A stretch of DNA of 64,000 nucleotides from Escherichia phage EJP2: sequence record OQ411014.1, one strand, 5' to 3'. Position 1 is the first letter of the stretch; the number at the start of each line of letters is the position of its first letter. Below, piece after piece: positions 7,972 through 57,817 of the stretch. The notes below the pieces were generated by a model. The model worked only from the letters and a program-made list of their open reading frames with translations, made no database searches and was not told where the DNA came from. The translations under genes were made by a program, and so were the position numbers.

Positions 7972-8001
7972 TTGAGACAAAACTCAATACTATGATATAA
8001 T
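7972..8001 (+). promoter_or_regulatory. sigma70-like promoter TTGAGA-N18-TATAAT with TGA extended -10
   Basis: ttgaga at 7972-7977, tgatataat ending 8001; member of the recurring promoter family. Confidence 0.55.
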
Positions 8002-22946: not shown

Positions 22947-22980
22947 ACTCAATTGAGGTTGTCTATTGACAGCCTCTTTT
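22947..22980 (+). terminator. hairpin aggttgtc/gacagcct followed by T7
   Basis: 8-bp stem with one G-U pair, overlaps -35 of next promoter. Confidence 0.55.
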
Positions 22981-22994
22981 TTTCTTGATATAAT
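22966..22994 (+). promoter_or_regulatory. sigma70-like promoter TTGACA-N17-TATAAT
   Basis: ttgaca 22966-22971, tataat 22989-22994 preceded by tga. Confidence 0.55.
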
Positions 22995-23021
22995 GTTTAG
23001 ACTCATGGAAGGAGGAAAATT

Positions 23022-26666: not shown

Positions 26667-26671
26667 TATTT

Positions 26672-26701
26672 TTGAGATGAATGAAAATTTTGTGATATAA
26701 T
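26672..26701 (+). promoter_or_regulatory. sigma70-like promoter TTGAGA-N18-TATAAT with TGTGA
   Basis: ttgaga 26672-26677, tgtgatataat 26691-26701; fires into an ORF-free region. Confidence 0.55.
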
Positions 26702-26704
26702 GTA

Positions 26705-27175
26705 TAGTACGGATAACACCTATGTTGAATGTCTTTGATAAACAGAACCTGATCCACTCGAAAATGTAGAGGGCAGATGAGTAGAACATTCACTACGAAG
26801 TGCAAATGAAACCCGTCAGTAATAAAGCGTAAGTGCGGTCATACAAACGAGACGTAAGACACACGCGACACGGCAAAGCGGCACTATAAAAGCGATAAGA
26901 AAACATATTCGCTCTTGATAGACTTATGAGGCATACTCACCCAGTTGAAAGGGAGTCTCTTTACGGAGAGACAGCAGTATTTGTTGCTGAATTAGCAAGT
27001 ACTGTAAGCGTGTGAGGAACACGACCGTTGTATGCAGACTGTAGTAGCTGGAAACAGGACAACCCGCCAGCGTTGCTACTTTTATTTGTACGGGAAAGAT
27101 CCGTCCAAAAAGTAGTGAATCTACAAATTCAGATTGGTAAGACTACCAGCGTCAGGATATTCCTGATTTTTTTTC
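26705..27175 (+). ncRNA. candidate structured non-coding RNA (about 470 nt), identity unknown
   Basis: no ORF of 60 aa or more on the plus strand; locally GC-richer; bounded by promoter 26672-26701 and hairpin plus T8 at 27153-27175; internal perfect hairpin gtctct/agagac. Confidence 0.3.
27153..27175 (+). terminator. hairpin cagga/tcctg followed by T8
   Basis: short stem and long T-tract at the end of the ORF-free region. Confidence 0.5.
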
Positions 27176-27311
27176 GGCCCTCCCTTGTGGGGGGATGGAA
27201 TTGGATCAACAAACCTCGTCAAGTATAATATGAATAGTATTAGTACTTAATAATTCAAATGAATTGAGAGATATGAGATGAGCGATAGCGAAATCGAATA
27301 TGTCTCAATTC

Positions 27312-27332
27312 TTGGCTTACGCAGTAAGCCAA
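27312..27332 (+). promoter_or_regulatory. perfect 9-bp hairpin in the 5' leader of the 27355 gene
   Basis: ttggcttac gca gtaagccaa, 10 nt upstream of RBS aggag. Confidence 0.4.
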
Positions 27333-27354
27333 CGAAACATTACAGGAGCTTATC

Positions 27355-37207: not shown

Positions 37208-37549
37208 GTGTTATATATGCTAAATGTAAACGTTCAAGGTAATGTAGAAATCACTGACGCAATTCATGAACATATTCTGGCTGAAGCGGATCATCTAGAA
37301 AAGTACAGTACTGATAAAGTACTGGAACTTGATGTTCACGTGAAAAAAGAACACAAAACTCAATACACTGTAACAATCGTTGGTAACGGCAAATCCAGTA
37401 CTGCCAACGCTGCTGATTTATACAAAGCAATCACTGACTCCTTTGGTAAAATGGATAAAGTGCTTGGTAAAGATAAGAGTGTAAAAATCAGTCGCCGTAA
37501 CAATCCTGTTCATCCTGTTGAAATTGACTTGACAGAAGACGAAGAGTAA
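37208..37549 (+). CDS. hypothetical protein
   Basis: 113-aa ORF. Confidence 0.45.
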   Translation: MLYMLNVNVQGNVEITDAIHEHILAEADHLEKYSTDKVLELDVHVKKEHKTQYTVTIVGNGKSSTANAADLYKAITDSFGKMDKVLGKDKSVKISRRNNPVHPVEIDLTEDEE

Positions 37550-37560
37550 TACATAATACA

Positions 37561-37586
37561 AGGAAGCCATATGGCTTCCTTTTTTA
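37561..37586 (+). terminator. hairpin aggaagccat/atggcttcct followed by T6
   Basis: perfect 10-bp palindrome plus T-tract. Confidence 0.85.
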
Positions 37587-37590
37587 ATAT

Positions 37591-54376: not shown

Positions 54377-55351
54377 ATGAAAAACAAAATCAATGAAGCA
54401 TCTATCAAACTTGATGTGAACGGTCTTGAGTCATCTGACTTCGATACCTTATCCCGTATGCTTGCTCTAGCTGGTCAAGCTGAAACACAGGGTGGTAATA
54501 ACCCTGGTATGTCCGAACTACCAAAAATGAAAGCATTCGACTTTGATGCATTTGGTGGTGACGAAGCTGAAGTTGAACCAATTCCTTCTGCTGATCCATT
54601 TGGAGAGCCGGAGGCTGAACTTTCCGTCGAACCAATGGCAGAACCTGAAGTTGGTTCTGAAGAAGAACTTTCTCTTGACTTAGATGGTTCACCGTCACTA
54701 GAATCTGGTGATGAGTTCGAAGAAGATGATTTCGATTTCGGACGTATGTCTGAACTAGCTGGTCTAGGTGAAAGTGTTTCTCTAGCAACTTCAGAAGACG
54801 AAGCTGGTGAAGGTGAAGTAGAAGATGCTGATGAACTTGCCAAAGATGAAGAAGATGCAGCAGCAGAAGAACTTTCTGAAAAACTACTCCCTGACCTATC
54901 TCTAGATGAAGATGCTGAAGCACGATCTGACGATGGTGATCGTCACCACGTTGTGGATTCAAAAGAACATGGTCCATTCAGTACTGAACGTGAAGCTGTT
55001 CATGATGCAATGCGTGTAACCAATGGTACTGAATTCGAACATTTTGCTATCATCCCAGGAAAAGACGGTTATTACTGGAGACGTAACCTACAAGAAGGTT
55101 TCGATAACGAACCAGAACCAGAAGTTGTTGATATGGATGGTATTGAAAATAGTCGTCATGAATTCAAACGTGTTCCAGGAACTGCACTTGGTGATAACCC
55201 ACTAAAAGAATCTGAAGATGAAGACTCAGATAAGTGTGACAAATGCCACGAAGATCCATGTGAGTGTTCGGACGAGAAACTAGATGAAGATGTATCTGAC
55301 ATTCTAGAGAGCATCAATGCTCGCTACAATGAATACATCAAAGGTCTATAA
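54377..55351 (+). CDS. highly acidic low-complexity protein with C-terminal Cys cluster
   Basis: long D/E-rich tracts; CDKCHEDPCEC near the C-terminus; 324 aa. Confidence 0.5.
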   Translation: MKNKINEASIKLDVNGLESSDFDTLSRMLALAGQAETQGGNNPGMSELPKMKAFDFDAFGGDEAEVEPIPSADPFGEPEAELSVEPMAEPEVGSEEELSLDLDGSPSLESGDEFEEDDFDFGRMSELAGLGESVSLATSEDEAGEGEVEDADELAKDEEDAAAEELSEKLLPDLSLDEDAEARSDDGDRHHVVDSKEHGPFSTEREAVHDAMRVTNGTEFEHFAIIPGKDGYYWRRNLQEGFDNEPEPEVVDMDGIENSRHEFKRVPGTALGDNPLKESEDEDSDKCDKCHEDPCECSDEKLDEDVSDILESINARYNEYIKGL

Positions 55352-55352
55352 T

Positions 55353-55748
55353 ATGGATTATCGGTCATTAGTAGAATCTCTTGACAATATAATGCATGGT
55401 GAAGAGGGTTCGGATGAACTCTCTCCACAAGAATTACTAAAAGGGATTGTTCAATCACTACAGGGAATCACAAACTGTATCAGTGCTGAAGAAATCCAAG
55501 ATTATGATGCATTGATAGAAGTTTTGAAAGATGTGAAAAATATGCTTGACGAAGTTCAAGATACCCAATATAATGAACCCCATCAAGACGAGACAGTTGA
55601 AGAAGACCTTCTACCTCTTGATAGTATTGAAGGTAACGAGTTAGGTACTAAAGGTATGGGGCCAACAATCGACAGTGCTGGTAAACAGAACTACGCGAAG
55701 AAAGACGGCAAATCATACGCAGAGCGGAAAGGCTTCGTAGGTCCATAA
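55353..55748 (+). CDS. hypothetical acidic protein
   Basis: start at ATG 55353 immediately after upstream stop. Confidence 0.45.
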   Translation: MDYRSLVESLDNIMHGEEGSDELSPQELLKGIVQSLQGITNCISAEEIQDYDALIEVLKDVKNMLDEVQDTQYNEPHQDETVEEDLLPLDSIEGNELGTKGMGPTIDSAGKQNYAKKDGKSYAERKGFVGP

Positions 55749-55749
55749 T

Positions 55750-56130
55750 ATGATGATGATACCGCCAACTGATCGTACTGACTCCCAGATGGAAGTACTT
55801 TCTAAAATACGGTCAGTACAAGTGGAAAAATCTGACTTAACCGACCGTTTAGTACTGAAGTCTATCTTTGAAAATTACAGATCCGGTTCGGGTATGAGAT
55901 TGAGTAAATTTGGTAAAGAGATGTGCATTGAGCATGAACTCTATGAGTTTGCTAAGTTTAATATCCCTAAAGGAACTAAGAAATCAGTACTGTTTATAAC
56001 GCTTGACAGATTATGCAAAGAGCCGTATTATGTAGAAGGTTTCGATGTGTTTCTGTCGGATGCACAAGTAATAACAGAACTGACATTTTGTTGTGATGAT
56101 TTTGAAAAATTGATTAAACTTTATTTGTGA
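55750..56130 (+). CDS. hypothetical protein
   Basis: 126-aa ORF. Confidence 0.45.
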   Translation: MMMIPPTDRTDSQMEVLSKIRSVQVEKSDLTDRLVLKSIFENYRSGSGMRLSKFGKEMCIEHELYEFAKFNIPKGTKKSVLFITLDRLCKEPYYVEGFDVFLSDAQVITELTFCCDDFEKLIKLYL

Positions 56131-56154: not shown

Positions 56155-56301
56155 AGTTTTACAGTTTACAAGGCACTCTGATTTAAAATAAAATAAAATC
56201 AAAAGTGCCTTCTCTTTTGCCAAAATTTATGATACACTATAAATTCTGACAAAAGCATCTCACTAAAACGAGATGAGTTAAAAAAAGATTTAAAAAAGTG
56301 G

Positions 56302-56330
56302 TTGACAAGGCATTAAGAAGTACGTATAAT
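56302..56330 (+). promoter_or_regulatory. consensus sigma70 promoter TTGACA-N17-TATAAT
   Basis: perfect -35 and -10 hexamers with 17-bp spacer, about 120 bp upstream of the AAA+ gene. Confidence 0.7.
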
Positions 56331-56448
56331 TAATCACATCAAGACGAGAACGTGATTGAACAAATGAGAAAAAGGACTTGACTCTACCAACGGATTTTGG
56401 TAAACTAAACAAACTTTACTTATCATCAATAAATGAGGAATCAATACT

Positions 56449-57780
56449 ATGTCTACTAACAACGACCTGCTGAACATCAAACTGTCCCCAAAACAAGCTA
56501 AAGCTGCTATGGAAGCTGCTGACCTGTGCCGCGATAGTCTGATGATTTGGGGTGCACCTGGTATCGGTAAATCCGCAATTGCACGTCAATACGCTGATGA
56601 GAAATATCCACTGCGTAAAGACAACGTTGGTCGTATCGCATCTCTGAACAATCGTATTGCTCAAGAAACTGATGCTGATGAGAAGAAAGCACTAGAACGT
56701 GAACTGGCTTCACTAGAATCCAAACTGATTGATCAAGATACCAACTTCATTGACTTCCGTCTGTCTCAGATTGAACCAACTGACTTACGTGGTATCCCAG
56801 TTCCAGAAAAACTGTTCCGTTCTACTAACGGTAACCTGTTGAAAGAATCTGAACTGGCTGAAGCGAAAGAGTACGTAGCTGAAACCGCAGTAACTTGGGC
56901 TGCTCCTAAAGTACTGAAACTGGCTGACGATTGGAAAGGTGTGATTCTGTTTGATGAAATCAACTCCGCAATGCCGATTGTACAAGCAGCGTCCTACCAG
57001 CTAATTCTGGACCGTTGTGTTGGTGAAATGAAACTACCATCTACTGCACTGATTCTTGCAGCAGGTAACCGTGACGGTGACGGCGGTGTAACTTTCACCC
57101 TAGCTACTCCACTGCGTGACCGTATGACTCACATTGAAGTCACTCCGAATCACACTGACTGGATTGATGACTATGCAATCAACAAGCGTCTGAACGCAGC
57201 GACTGTAGCATTCATCAACAACACTGGTAGCAAGTACTTCAACACGCTAGACCCGAACAACCCAAGCCATGCTGGTGGTACTTCTCCACGCTCTTGGGAA
57301 AAAGTAGCCGAGTACGAAGATCTGAATCAAAAAGGTCTGTTGACTAAAGAAATCTACCGTGCTATGATTGCTGGACGTGTTACCGATGGTATCGCAGTTG
57401 AGTACATCGAGTTTGTTGAGAACGTTGCATCTCTACCAGATACCATGAAGATTCTGACTGGTGAGATCAAAGAGATTGATAAAGACTTGGATATTTCTTC
57501 CAACTACTTCATCACTCTGAACCTAGTGTACAAGATTATCGCACTCTTCGAAGAGAAGAATGAGAAACGTCTAAGTGCAGAAGAGTGGAACCAAATGGCG
57601 AATAACTTCGTAGTGTTCCTAGACCACAACTTCTCTGCAACACAAGGTGAGTTGGCAGTACTAGCAATTCGTAACATTACTATCGCAGGTGTTACTATGT
57701 CTTACAACGATGTTCCAGCGTTCCAGCCGTTCGTAAAACGCTACATGGGTCTAGTTCGTAAAGCACGTGCACTGAAGTAA
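56449..57780 (+). CDS. MoxR-type AAA+ ATPase (AAA_5-like)
   Basis: Walker A GAPGIGKS; Walker B VILFDEINSA; LILAAGNRDG sensor; LATPLRDRM; CTG-rich codon usage unlike neighbouring genes. Confidence 0.8.
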   Translation: MSTNNDLLNIKLSPKQAKAAMEAADLCRDSLMIWGAPGIGKSAIARQYADEKYPLRKDNVGRIASLNNRIAQETDADEKKALERELASLESKLIDQDTNFIDFRLSQIEPTDLRGIPVPEKLFRSTNGNLLKESELAEAKEYVAETAVTWAAPKVLKLADDWKGVILFDEINSAMPIVQAASYQLILDRCVGEMKLPSTALILAAGNRDGDGGVTFTLATPLRDRMTHIEVTPNHTDWIDDYAINKRLNAATVAFINNTGSKYFNTLDPNNPSHAGGTSPRSWEKVAEYEDLNQKGLLTKEIYRAMIAGRVTDGIAVEYIEFVENVASLPDTMKILTGEIKEIDKDLDISSNYFITLNLVYKIIALFEEKNEKRLSAEEWNQMANNFVVFLDHNFSATQGELAVLAIRNITIAGVTMSYNDVPAFQPFVKRYMGLVRKARALK

Positions 57781-57790
57781 TAACTCAAAA

Positions 57791-57817
57791 GGAGGCTGAA
57801 TAATCAGTCTCCTTTTT
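57791..57817 (+). terminator. hairpin ggaggctga/tcagtctcc followed by T5
   Basis: 9-bp stem with one G-U pair; may attenuate between the two module genes. Confidence 0.6.

Follow-up and report, generated by a model that had tools for sequence, protein, structure and literature searches.

A conserved, probable leaky terminator and an inserted promoter cassette upstream of the MoxR ATPase gene of Escherichia phage EJP2

Introduction

What is the role of a short segment full of hairpins that lies between two promoters in the genome of Escherichia phage EJP2 (sequence record OQ411014.1)? The segment covers positions 56155-56300 of a stretch of 64,000 nt, which we call the window, and lies upstream of an N4 gp24-like MoxR ATPase gene (56449-57780, + strand). 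An earlier note on the window had read the segment as a candidate small RNA or attenuator that controls the genes downstream. Our analysis leads to a simpler answer. The segment is ordinary transcription punctuation plus a promoter insertion, and there is no clear new small RNA in it. The first hairpin, which we call T1, is most likely a leaky intrinsic (Rho-independent) terminator that is ancestral to the group. Downstream of T1, a promoter cassette seen in a single lineage has been inserted and would drive the ATPase gene together with the gene for a DUF2201/VWA protein that directly follows it. We hold this composite explanation with moderate confidence.

Results

T1 occupies 56170-56211 on the + strand. 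Its arms, AAGGCACT (56170-56177) and AGTGCCTT (56204-56211), pair over 8 bp, four of them G-C, and are directly followed by the U-tract CTCTTTTG (56212-56219, with T in five of the eight bases). The hairpin and its T-rich tail had been recognized before, but with a stem of 7 bp instead of 8 and a loop of roughly 25 nt instead of 26. Sixteen of the loop bases are A. An inner helix predicted in the GAUUUA/AAAUC region reduces the loop to 11 nt, and the apical loop contains three copies of AAAAT (56185-56199). The energy of T1 is -13.2 to -13.8 kcal/mol (z = -4.7 compared to shuffled sequences), and the seven other obvious terminators of the window range from -10 to -15 kcal/mol. When the relatives of the phage are included, T1 stem-loops span -11.7 to -17.1 kcal/mol, which is equal to the window's other terminators. 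Two properties of Rho-independent terminators are present in T1: a stable, G+C-containing stem-loop and a U-rich tract directly 3' of it.

T1 is followed by two further hairpins, I1 and hairpin 2. I1, which the earlier note missed, takes up the space between T1 and hairpin 2. That the segment is rich in hairpins is not a chance effect. As a whole, its 146 nt fold at -30.7 kcal/mol (z = -4.5), and none of 200 shuffled sequences folds as well. Taken singly, I1 reaches -9.4 kcal/mol (z = -4.0) and hairpin 2 reaches -7.4 kcal/mol (z = -3.8).

The evidence that carries our interpretation of T1 is comparative. EJP2 can be classed as a Rak2-like jumbo phage. A megablast search against phages gave no matches at all, and relatives were found with distant blastn searches. 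The closest record to the window is Erwinia phage Hallingskeid (about 76% nucleotide identity); the next-closest relatives are Asteriusvirus, 7t3/Munch/Kae01, RaK2, and Eneladusvirus and Mimasvirus phages. We gathered the homologous intergenic regions from about 30 genomes and contigs that belong to several genera. They include two Logan contigs, L070 and L071, whose ATPase is 99% identical, as well as six Hallingskeid-like contigs (L072-L077) with an ATPase identity of 75-80%.

In these roughly 30 Rak2-like genomes and contigs, a perfect stem of 7-12 bp with the core (A/G)(G/A)(C/A)ACUG, followed by a T-run, lies upstream of the ATPase gene. The stem shows compensatory changes (GGCAC/GTGCC, GACAC/GTGTC, AGCAC/GTGCT and GGAAC/GTTCC). 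Over 20 distinct sequences, 93% of the alignment cells of the helix are paired and double changes are found in 4 of the 10 pairs. The covariation score is 0.197, compared to 0.082±0.016 for shuffled alignments (0 of 500 reach the observed score), and it collapses in slid controls. The columns of the T-run are invariant among 20-21 relatives. Because compensatory substitutions and an invariant T-run persist over such deep divergence, T1 cannot be explained as a scar of past recombination. Only T1, among the three hairpins, is conserved beyond the immediate lineage. Covariation in related phages thus exists for the first of the two hairpins described by the earlier note, while hairpin 2, like I1, is restricted to the lineage of EJP2.

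A covariance model built from the relatives has a single significant match in the 64-kb window, at 56165-56242 (40.4 bits, E = 8e-7). The next-best matches are the window's other terminators, including T2, the terminator-like hairpin downstream of the ATPase gene. An exact 16-mer search of IMG/VR with the 3' arm of T1 returned the already known relatives and chance matches only. Among distant relatives, a contig at 50% ATPase identity retains a GAACUG/CAGUUC hairpin with a U-tract; Vibrio phage 2.275.O and one contig (46% ATPase identity) are without T1.

The loop of T1 is far more variable than the stem. It ranges from 4 nt in pEa44- and CBB-like phages to the 26 nt of the window (with 16 nt in Hallingskeid and 21 nt in L071), and the pEa44- and CBB-like homologues, with loops of 4-6 nt, are canonical tetraloop terminators. 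The AAAAT repeat occurs three times in the window, twice in L071 (99% ATPase identity) and once in Hallingskeid-like relatives. We read these changes in copy number as replication slippage inside the terminator loop.

Elements of the T1 kind are already known. The homologue of T1 in phage CBB has been listed as the ARNold-predicted terminator "Torf215" (PMC5259590, Suppl. Table S8). Torf215 is a direct homologue in position and in sequence, with the same flanking genes and similar energies: CBB has AAAAGCACTGA-AAAC-TCAGTGCTTTT followed by CTTTTT, where the window has AAGGCACT...AGTGCCTT followed by CTCTTTTG. The window T1 differs in that it has a 26-nt loop, an inner helix and the AAAAT repeat in place of a tetraloop, and in that a promoter cassette stands before the ATPase gene. 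The CBB paper does not mention a promoter upstream of the terminator (PMC5259590).

Such a promoter is nevertheless found in all relatives. In the window, the extended -10 promoter P1 (56125-56154, + strand) reads TTGTGA-18-TATAAT with TGTGATATAAT, and an alternative -35 register, GTGACA, starts at 56127. P1 overlaps the stop codon of a 126-amino-acid gene. At the same position all relatives have TG(T/G)G(A/T)TATAAT; the -35 element overlaps the stop codon and is TGAAACG in CBB-like phages. P1 matches the CBB class 'TGAAACG-N16-TATAAT', which has been described as divergent RpoD-like and as a putative middle class (PMC5259590). Both of the tandem promoters that the earlier note had placed around the segment are where it had placed them, P1 at 56125/56127-56154 and a consensus promoter at 56302-56330 that agrees in 12 of 12 positions. 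A promoter class TTGAGA-N18-TATAAT with TGTGA before the -10 element also occurs at 7972, 26672 and 59297 of the window (and as P1 at 56125); it appears to be the lineage counterpart of the divergent RpoD-like 'TGAAACG-N16-TATAAT' promoters of CBB and GAP32. At 26691 and 33244, the promoter is followed by sequences of the GGA(U/A)AACAC type.

T1 lies directly downstream of the conserved P1, which agrees with the idea that the upstream promoter yields a short, terminated transcript. The predicted P1-T1 RNA is about 57 nt long in the window and 70-95 nt in relatives. The leader between P1 and T1 measures 25-45 nt in relatives and contains a UUAAGA(G)A box (UUAAGAGA) and an A(N)GGA(U/A) motif. 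In the window, only about 9 nt of leader remain and the conserved boxes are deleted. The order of elements in relatives is upstream stop codon, P1, leader, T1, a hairpin with GGA in its loop (the GGA hairpin), in some cases a -10-like element, ribosome-binding site and ATG. This promoter-terminator-hairpin leader has been kept ahead of the ATPase gene in at least six genus-level lineages.

The second part of our explanation concerns the DNA downstream of T1. In the window, the intergenic region between the 126-amino-acid gene and the ATPase gene is 318 nt long, and L070 and L071 share this long form. The six Hallingskeid-like contigs have a short, 157-nt form. The difference includes an insertion of about 165 nt (approximately 56224-56390), which only L070 and L071 share with the window and which the six Hallingskeid-like relatives are without. 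It is followed by an intact GGA hairpin (56385-56402) and TAAACT, and it shifts the GGA hairpin about 165 nt away from T1. Compared to the short form, the window lineage has also lost the P1-T1 leader and expanded the T1 loop.

Over its full length, the insert aligns with an Asteriusvirus-type leader that consists of a decayed P1, a CATC...GATG hairpin, an A-tract and P2, including TTGACA-17-TATAAT and CACATCAAGACGA(C)GAA(C)GTGATTGA. The insert itself does not contain T1. The most prominent component of the insert is P2 (56302-56349, + strand), which combines the consensus sigma70 promoter TTGACA-17-TATAAT (56302-56330) with the initial transcribed box CACATCAAGACGAGA. The box is conserved (CAUCAAGAC). 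P2 is preceded by an A-rich tract (56276-56300, + strand) that ends in ...TTTAAAAAAGTG immediately before the -35 element and resembles an UP element. According to Estrem et al., the consensus of the proximal UP subsite is reportedly AAAAAARNR, which AAAAAAGTG at 56292-56300 matches. The arrangement TTTTAAAAAAGT(A/G)GTTGACA also occurs in dispersed early promoters of Asteriusvirus. In CBB, UP-like elements precede RpoD-like promoters as well (PMC5259590).

Hairpin 2 (56256-56275, + strand) is CATCTC-ACTAAAAC-GAGATG, in which 56256-56261 pairs with 56270-56275 around an 8-nt loop, and it is followed by AGTTAAAAAAAGATTTAAAAAAG. The hairpin and the A-tract after it were correctly described in the earlier note, yet the A-tract is the UP element of P2 and the hairpin has no T-tract on the + strand. 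In Asteriusvirus, hairpin 2 has a homologue in the CATC...GATG(T)GAG hairpin region, which lies between P1 and P2. We also considered hairpin 2 as a terminator on the minus strand, where it scores as terminator-like, and rejected this idea since no minus-strand gene is nearby.

The core of the insert (the 3' half of hairpin 2, the A-tract, P2 and the initial box) has 2-4 other matches in each Asteriusvirus genome. These include intergenic promoters in the terminal repeats, TTTTAAAAAAGTAGTTGACA-N17-TAGAAT-N5-ACATCAAGACG. From this homology it follows that P2 belongs, as far as its sequence can tell, to a dispersed family of early-type sigma70 promoters with UP elements, that the A-tract is such an UP element, and that hairpin 2 is a component of the cassette. 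Its role in the cassette is probably minor, and it could be the vestigial 5' stem of a decayed P1'.

Within the window, the P2 cassette recurs only as a 25-nt repeat at 55569-55593 (repeat D1). The repeat belongs to Pint, a sigma70-type promoter (55546-55593, + strand; TTGACG-17-TATAAT followed by the box CATCAAGACGAGA) that sits inside a gene for a 143-amino-acid virion protein (55317-55748). In Hallingskeid-like relatives, the -35 element, the -10 element and the box of Pint are invariant, but the 17-nt spacer differs completely, and this contrast suggests that Pint is a functional internal promoter. The box CATCAAGACGA is common to Pint, P2 and the dispersed early promoters of Asteriusvirus.

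A weaker promoter-like site, P3 (56378-56406, + strand; TTGACT-17-TAAACT with TG, 9 of 12 positions), overlaps the GGA hairpin. A -10-like TATAAT or TAAACT after the GGA hairpin is also present in Hallingskeid-, Asteriusvirus- and 7t3-type relatives; CBB and pEa44 types do not clearly have it.

The region close to the ATPase gene has yet another affinity. The ribosome-binding region at 56431-56448 (AAATGAGGAAT) resembles that of 7t3-like phages (L009 and L013-L015) and not that of Hallingskeid-like phages (AAAAGGAAC), and similarity to 7t3-type records starts at about 56431. Both observations suggest that the intergenic region is a recombinational mosaic.

Discussion

How transcription would run through this locus, where it terminates or leaks and which promoters are used when, we infer as follows. 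T1 stands at the boundary between a cluster of virion-protein genes, of which the 126-amino-acid gene just upstream of the intergenic region is the last, and the MoxR-ATPase/VWA module. There it would stop or thin out RNA polymerases that have started at P1 or Pint or come from the genes upstream. With P1 only about 10 nt ahead of T1, its product would mainly be a dead end: about 57 nt of RNA, nearly all of it terminator hairpin. In relatives, transcripts from P1 would reach the ATPase gene only by reading through T1. In the lineage of EJP2, an insertion or rearrangement has placed the early-type sigma70 cassette (hairpin 2, UP element, P2 and initial box) downstream of T1. The ATPase/VWA module would then be driven mainly by P2, possibly with some help from P3, and would be uncoupled from T1.

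That terminators of this module leak is suggested by a second hairpin. T2 (57791-57817, + strand), formed by GGAGGCTGA and TCAGTCTCC and followed by TTTTT, lies between the ATPase gene and the DUF2201/VWA gene. Only about 23 nt separate its T-tract from the next ATG, and this gap contains no promoter. Since there is no room for a promoter after T2, the terminators within the ATPase/VWA module must leak, if they act as their sequences predict. The position of T2 is kept in all relatives, and its counterpart in CBB is 'Torf216' (PMC5259590).

Several observations weigh against the interpretation of T1 as a simple leaky terminator. First, the window T1 is not called by a strict terminator consensus scan; its loop of 26 nt is much longer than the short apical loop (about 3-8 nt) of Rho-independent terminators. 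Second, its U-tract is interrupted (CUCUUUUG), so that its efficiency could be low. Third, elsewhere in the window a terminator is usually followed by a promoter, and at T1 this order is reversed, which hints at more than passive punctuation. Fourth, the stem sequence of T1 barely changes across genera, whereas that of T2 turns over and is unrelated between genera. Because the T1 stem is the more conserved of the two, an additional, sequence-specific constraint on T1 is suggested. Finally, literature searches found no transcript data for any enterobacterial Rak2-like phage, and neither RNA-seq nor mapped promoters or terminators for RaK2, phAPEC6 and Asteriusvirus.

One could also argue that T1 is a regulated attenuator, in which the level of read-through is set by a factor, either the host's CsrA/RsmA or an RNA-binding protein of the phage, that acts at the A(N)GGA(U) motifs on both sides of T1. 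We consider this unlikely, although it accounts for the unusual conservation of the T1 stem sequence and for the conserved order of P1, leader box, first GGA motif, T1 and GGA hairpin. An attenuator, as the earlier note had proposed for the module, requires a terminator between promoter and open reading frame. The position of T1 fits this role for P1 and for the promoters of relatives. It does not fit for P2 and P3: in the window T1 lies upstream of P2 and therefore cannot attenuate transcripts that start there. A regulated attenuator in EJP2 could thus affect P1 transcripts only, and the hairpin at 56385-56402 would still control the translation or stability of P2 transcripts.

The GGA hairpin is an argument for such regulation. 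It is UACCAA-CGGAUU-UUGGUA on the + strand (56385-56402), its loop CGGAUU is preceded by A, and it folds at -5.1 kcal/mol. In relatives (L001-L029 and L072-L077), it follows the T1 stem after 12-14 nt and abuts the U-tract of T1. The GGA is invariant in 16 of 16 sequences, within an A-N-GGA-U loop on a covarying stem of 4-6 bp (CCAAA/TTTGG, ACAAA/TTTGT, TCAAA/TTTGA, GCTTA/TAAGC, CTCAA/TTGAG and TCAGA/TCTGA). Its covariation score is 0.443, compared to 0.158±0.05 in shuffled alignments (0 of 500 reach it). The high-affinity consensus of CsrA/RsmE is an ANGGAX hexaloop on a stem, for example ACGGAU in hcnA (PMC4005645), and the loop of the GGA hairpin equals this consensus. Further likenesses to CsrA/RsmE sites (PMC4005645) are the short covarying stem and the position within a 5' leader, at a distance of about 45 nt from the ribosome-binding site. 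By its sequence, 56385-56402 is hence a candidate CsrA/RsmA site, and in the leaders of 16 of 17 relatives another A(N)GGA motif lies upstream of T1. All named hosts of the phage-database matches are Gram-negative gamma-proteobacteria, mostly Enterobacterales plus Xanthomonas. These hosts are known to carry CsrA/RsmA.

Other points speak against such regulation. RNAalifold on 17 leaders predicts the T1 helix alone and no alternative antiterminator fold, so that neither an exclusive antiterminator structure nor a defined effector-binding element accompanies T1, and the GGA motifs on either side of it are only candidates for protein binding. The P2 leader of 112 nt contains three GGA (56373, 56392 and 56437, the last within the ribosome-binding site GAGGAA), which does not exceed chance. 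GGA-loop hairpins are not clearly enriched across the window (24 compared to 15.9±4.5 in shuffled sequences), and as most of them overlap ribosome-binding sites we rejected the GGA-loop hairpin as a general motif of the genome. In several lineages, the 3' arm of the hairpin also supplies the TG of an extended -10 element, and a constraint at the DNA level contributes to its conservation. CsrA targets have several sites, of which one typically overlaps the Shine-Dalgarno sequence; such an overlap is not universal here, since CBB- and pEa44-type leaders have no GGA at that place. The hairpin also overlaps a -10-like element in the DNA. It also lies outside the segment, within which (56155-56300) no A(N)GGAX loop on a stem is found.

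A more specific idea, that the conserved leader is a control element of the MoxR-ATPase/VWA module that responds to the host's CsrA/RsmA, or that the terminated product is a small CsrA-binding RNA of the phage, has in our view only a slim chance of being correct. If it were, the expression of a virion-associated ATPase (the protein has been found in virions of phAPEC6 and Kae01) would be tied to the physiological state of the host. The element in the window, split by the promoter insertion, would then be a natural 'rewiring' experiment. More generally, if the GGA hairpin were a CsrA site, the expression of phage genes would be connected with a global regulator of the host.

For the leaky terminator that we favor, a functional analogy is lambda pR'-tR', where a promoter-proximal terminator produces the '6S' transcript and is read through by antitermination with Q. 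As in lambda and other leader attenuators, a promoter that looks constitutive is followed by a terminator within tens of nucleotides, which predicts a short abortive RNA. In contrast to lambda, our analysis identified no antiterminator protein, no Q-binding element and no alternative fold, and a second promoter bypasses T1.

It is even less likely that P1 and T1 form a stand-alone small RNA gene, whose stable product would act in trans by base pairing or as a protein decoy. Such a gene would be delimited by a conserved promoter and a terminator of its own, and in relatives conserved leader boxes (UUAAGAGA and A(N)GGA) lie between the two. The 5' AAGAG box can pair with the 3' CUCUU tail; 89% of the alignment cells pair, with one compensatory change from G-C to A-U. 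However, this is a purine box facing a pyrimidine tract, and 62-66% of cells also pair in slid controls. In the window, the leader boxes are deleted and about 9 nt are left before T1. The only sizeable unpaired part is the AAAAT microsatellite, whose copy number varies among relatives with 99% identity. A trans-acting small RNA from P1-T1 is unlikely because the RNA, about 57 nt long, has no conserved unpaired body or seed and its loop is a variable (AAAAT)n. The suggestion of the earlier note is partly supported: P1 should yield a short, terminated RNA in EJP2, but this RNA offers no conserved seed for action in trans. Neither the window nor 10 relatives had a relevant Rfam match, at the gathering threshold or at E<=10, and a search of the window for tRNA and tmRNA found none. 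Small open reading frames of 6 and 5 amino acids in the intergenic region were rejected by inspection, as they have no ribosome-binding sites.

Last, all hairpins could be neutral, AT-rich palindromes, that is, by-products of recombination or template switching without a function. As a reading of the whole segment this is improbable, for T1 with its compensatory substitutions and invariant T-run does not fit it. The reading is plausible for I1, and it may hold for hairpin 2; both are carried only by near-identical relatives. The copy number of (AAAAT)n varies by slippage. I1 is an imperfect palindrome (56214-56255, + strand), with CTTTTGCCAAAATTTAT (56214-56230) and ATAAATTCTGACAAAAG (56239-56255) complementary at 15 of 17 positions, and it is present in the window lineage only. 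It resembles a second, inverted copy of the T1 tail beside the junction of the rearrangement. The alignment to the covariance model places 56217-56242 on the model's part for the GGA hairpin and the -10 element, with the GGA loop lost. We interpret the left arm and the loop of I1 as a degenerate remnant of the ancestral 'GGA hairpin + TATAAT' element that followed T1. A remnant of this kind, combined with an inverted copy of the T1 tail, makes I1 probably a rearrangement scar. For hairpin 2, the stem is unchanged in L070 and L071 while the loop carries three substitutions, which gives weak support to the idea that the stem is under constraint.

The combination of a leaky T1 and an inserted cassette also invites comparison with the PeSL cassettes of T4-type phages. 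In PeSL cassettes, a stem-loop acts as terminator or attenuator for upstream transcription next to an AT-rich tract, copies are dispersed and serve as recombination points from which mosaic intergenic regions arise, and the stem-loop usually lies between the -35 and -10 elements of a strong sigma70 promoter or over the -10 element, with the ribosome-binding site and ATG at the 3' end (PMC2839356, PMC4122927). The cassette in EJP2 is similar in that it is an intergenic module of promoter and stem-loop, in which an AT-rich tract precedes a strong sigma70 promoter. It matches 2-4 places per Asteriusvirus genome, and the intergenic region of the window is mosaic. The cassette differs in that the hairpins lie upstream of the UP element, with hairpin 2 ending 26 nt upstream of the -35 element of P2. 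P2 is 119 nt away from the ATG, which does not fit the PeSL geometry, and within the window the cassette forms no repeat family, as only a 25-nt piece of it recurs. A closer look-alike than the P2 cassette is found elsewhere in the window. At 22954-22995, a terminator and a promoter overlap (GAGGTTGTCtaTTGACAGCCTC + TTTTTTT + cttgaTATAAT, 12 of 12 promoter positions), such that the -35 element lies in the 3' arm and loop of the terminator and the T-tract serves as spacer, a PeSL-like geometry.

If our interpretation is correct, T1 as a terminator with comparative support, together with the conserved leader, provides landmarks for transcript mapping in Rak2-like phages. The early-type cassette inserted downstream of T1 would be an example of promoter and terminator shuffling, and of recent rewiring, in Rak2-like genomes.

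Other observations in the window

The + strand carries nearly all genes of the 64-kb window. Two phage T4 motifs around T1 were considered and rejected. A MotA box in the TTTTGC(C/TTA) that follows T1 is not convincing because TTTTGCC occurs only once on the + strand of the window and its spacing to the -10-like element is inconsistent. For a T4-type late promoter TATAAATA, the single candidate in the intergenic region is TATAAATT at 56238, and the window as a whole contains few copies of the motif.

A promoter followed by a terminator also occurs at 37529-37590, where a promoter-like TTGACA-17-CATAAT at the 3' end of a gene precedes the terminator AAGGAAGCCATATGGCTTCCTTTTTT, which lies just before the next ATG.

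A site that deserves attention of its own lies far from T1. Positions 26667-27354 form a gap of 688 nt that is poor in open reading frames, with a promoter TTGAGA-N18-TGTGATATAAT (26672-26701) before its core. The core (26746-27228) ends at a strong terminator, GUCAGGAUAUUCCUGAUUUUUUUU (approximately 27153-27183). Searches for Rfam, tRNA and tmRNA matches found none, the window contains no paralogue of the core, and sequence records either leave it unannotated or give inconsistent, tiny open reading frames. The core is more conserved than the flanking protein genes; its identity is 89% in Salmonella phages 7t3/Munch and in Klebsiella phage Kae01, 84% in Hallingskeid, and 68-76% in the jumbo phages pEa44 and those of Yersinia and Xanthomonas. 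RNAalifold on five sequences predicts 109 pairs, 33 of them with compensatory double changes. In Rak2-like jumbo phages, the core is hence a candidate for an undescribed structured RNA, about 480 nt long.

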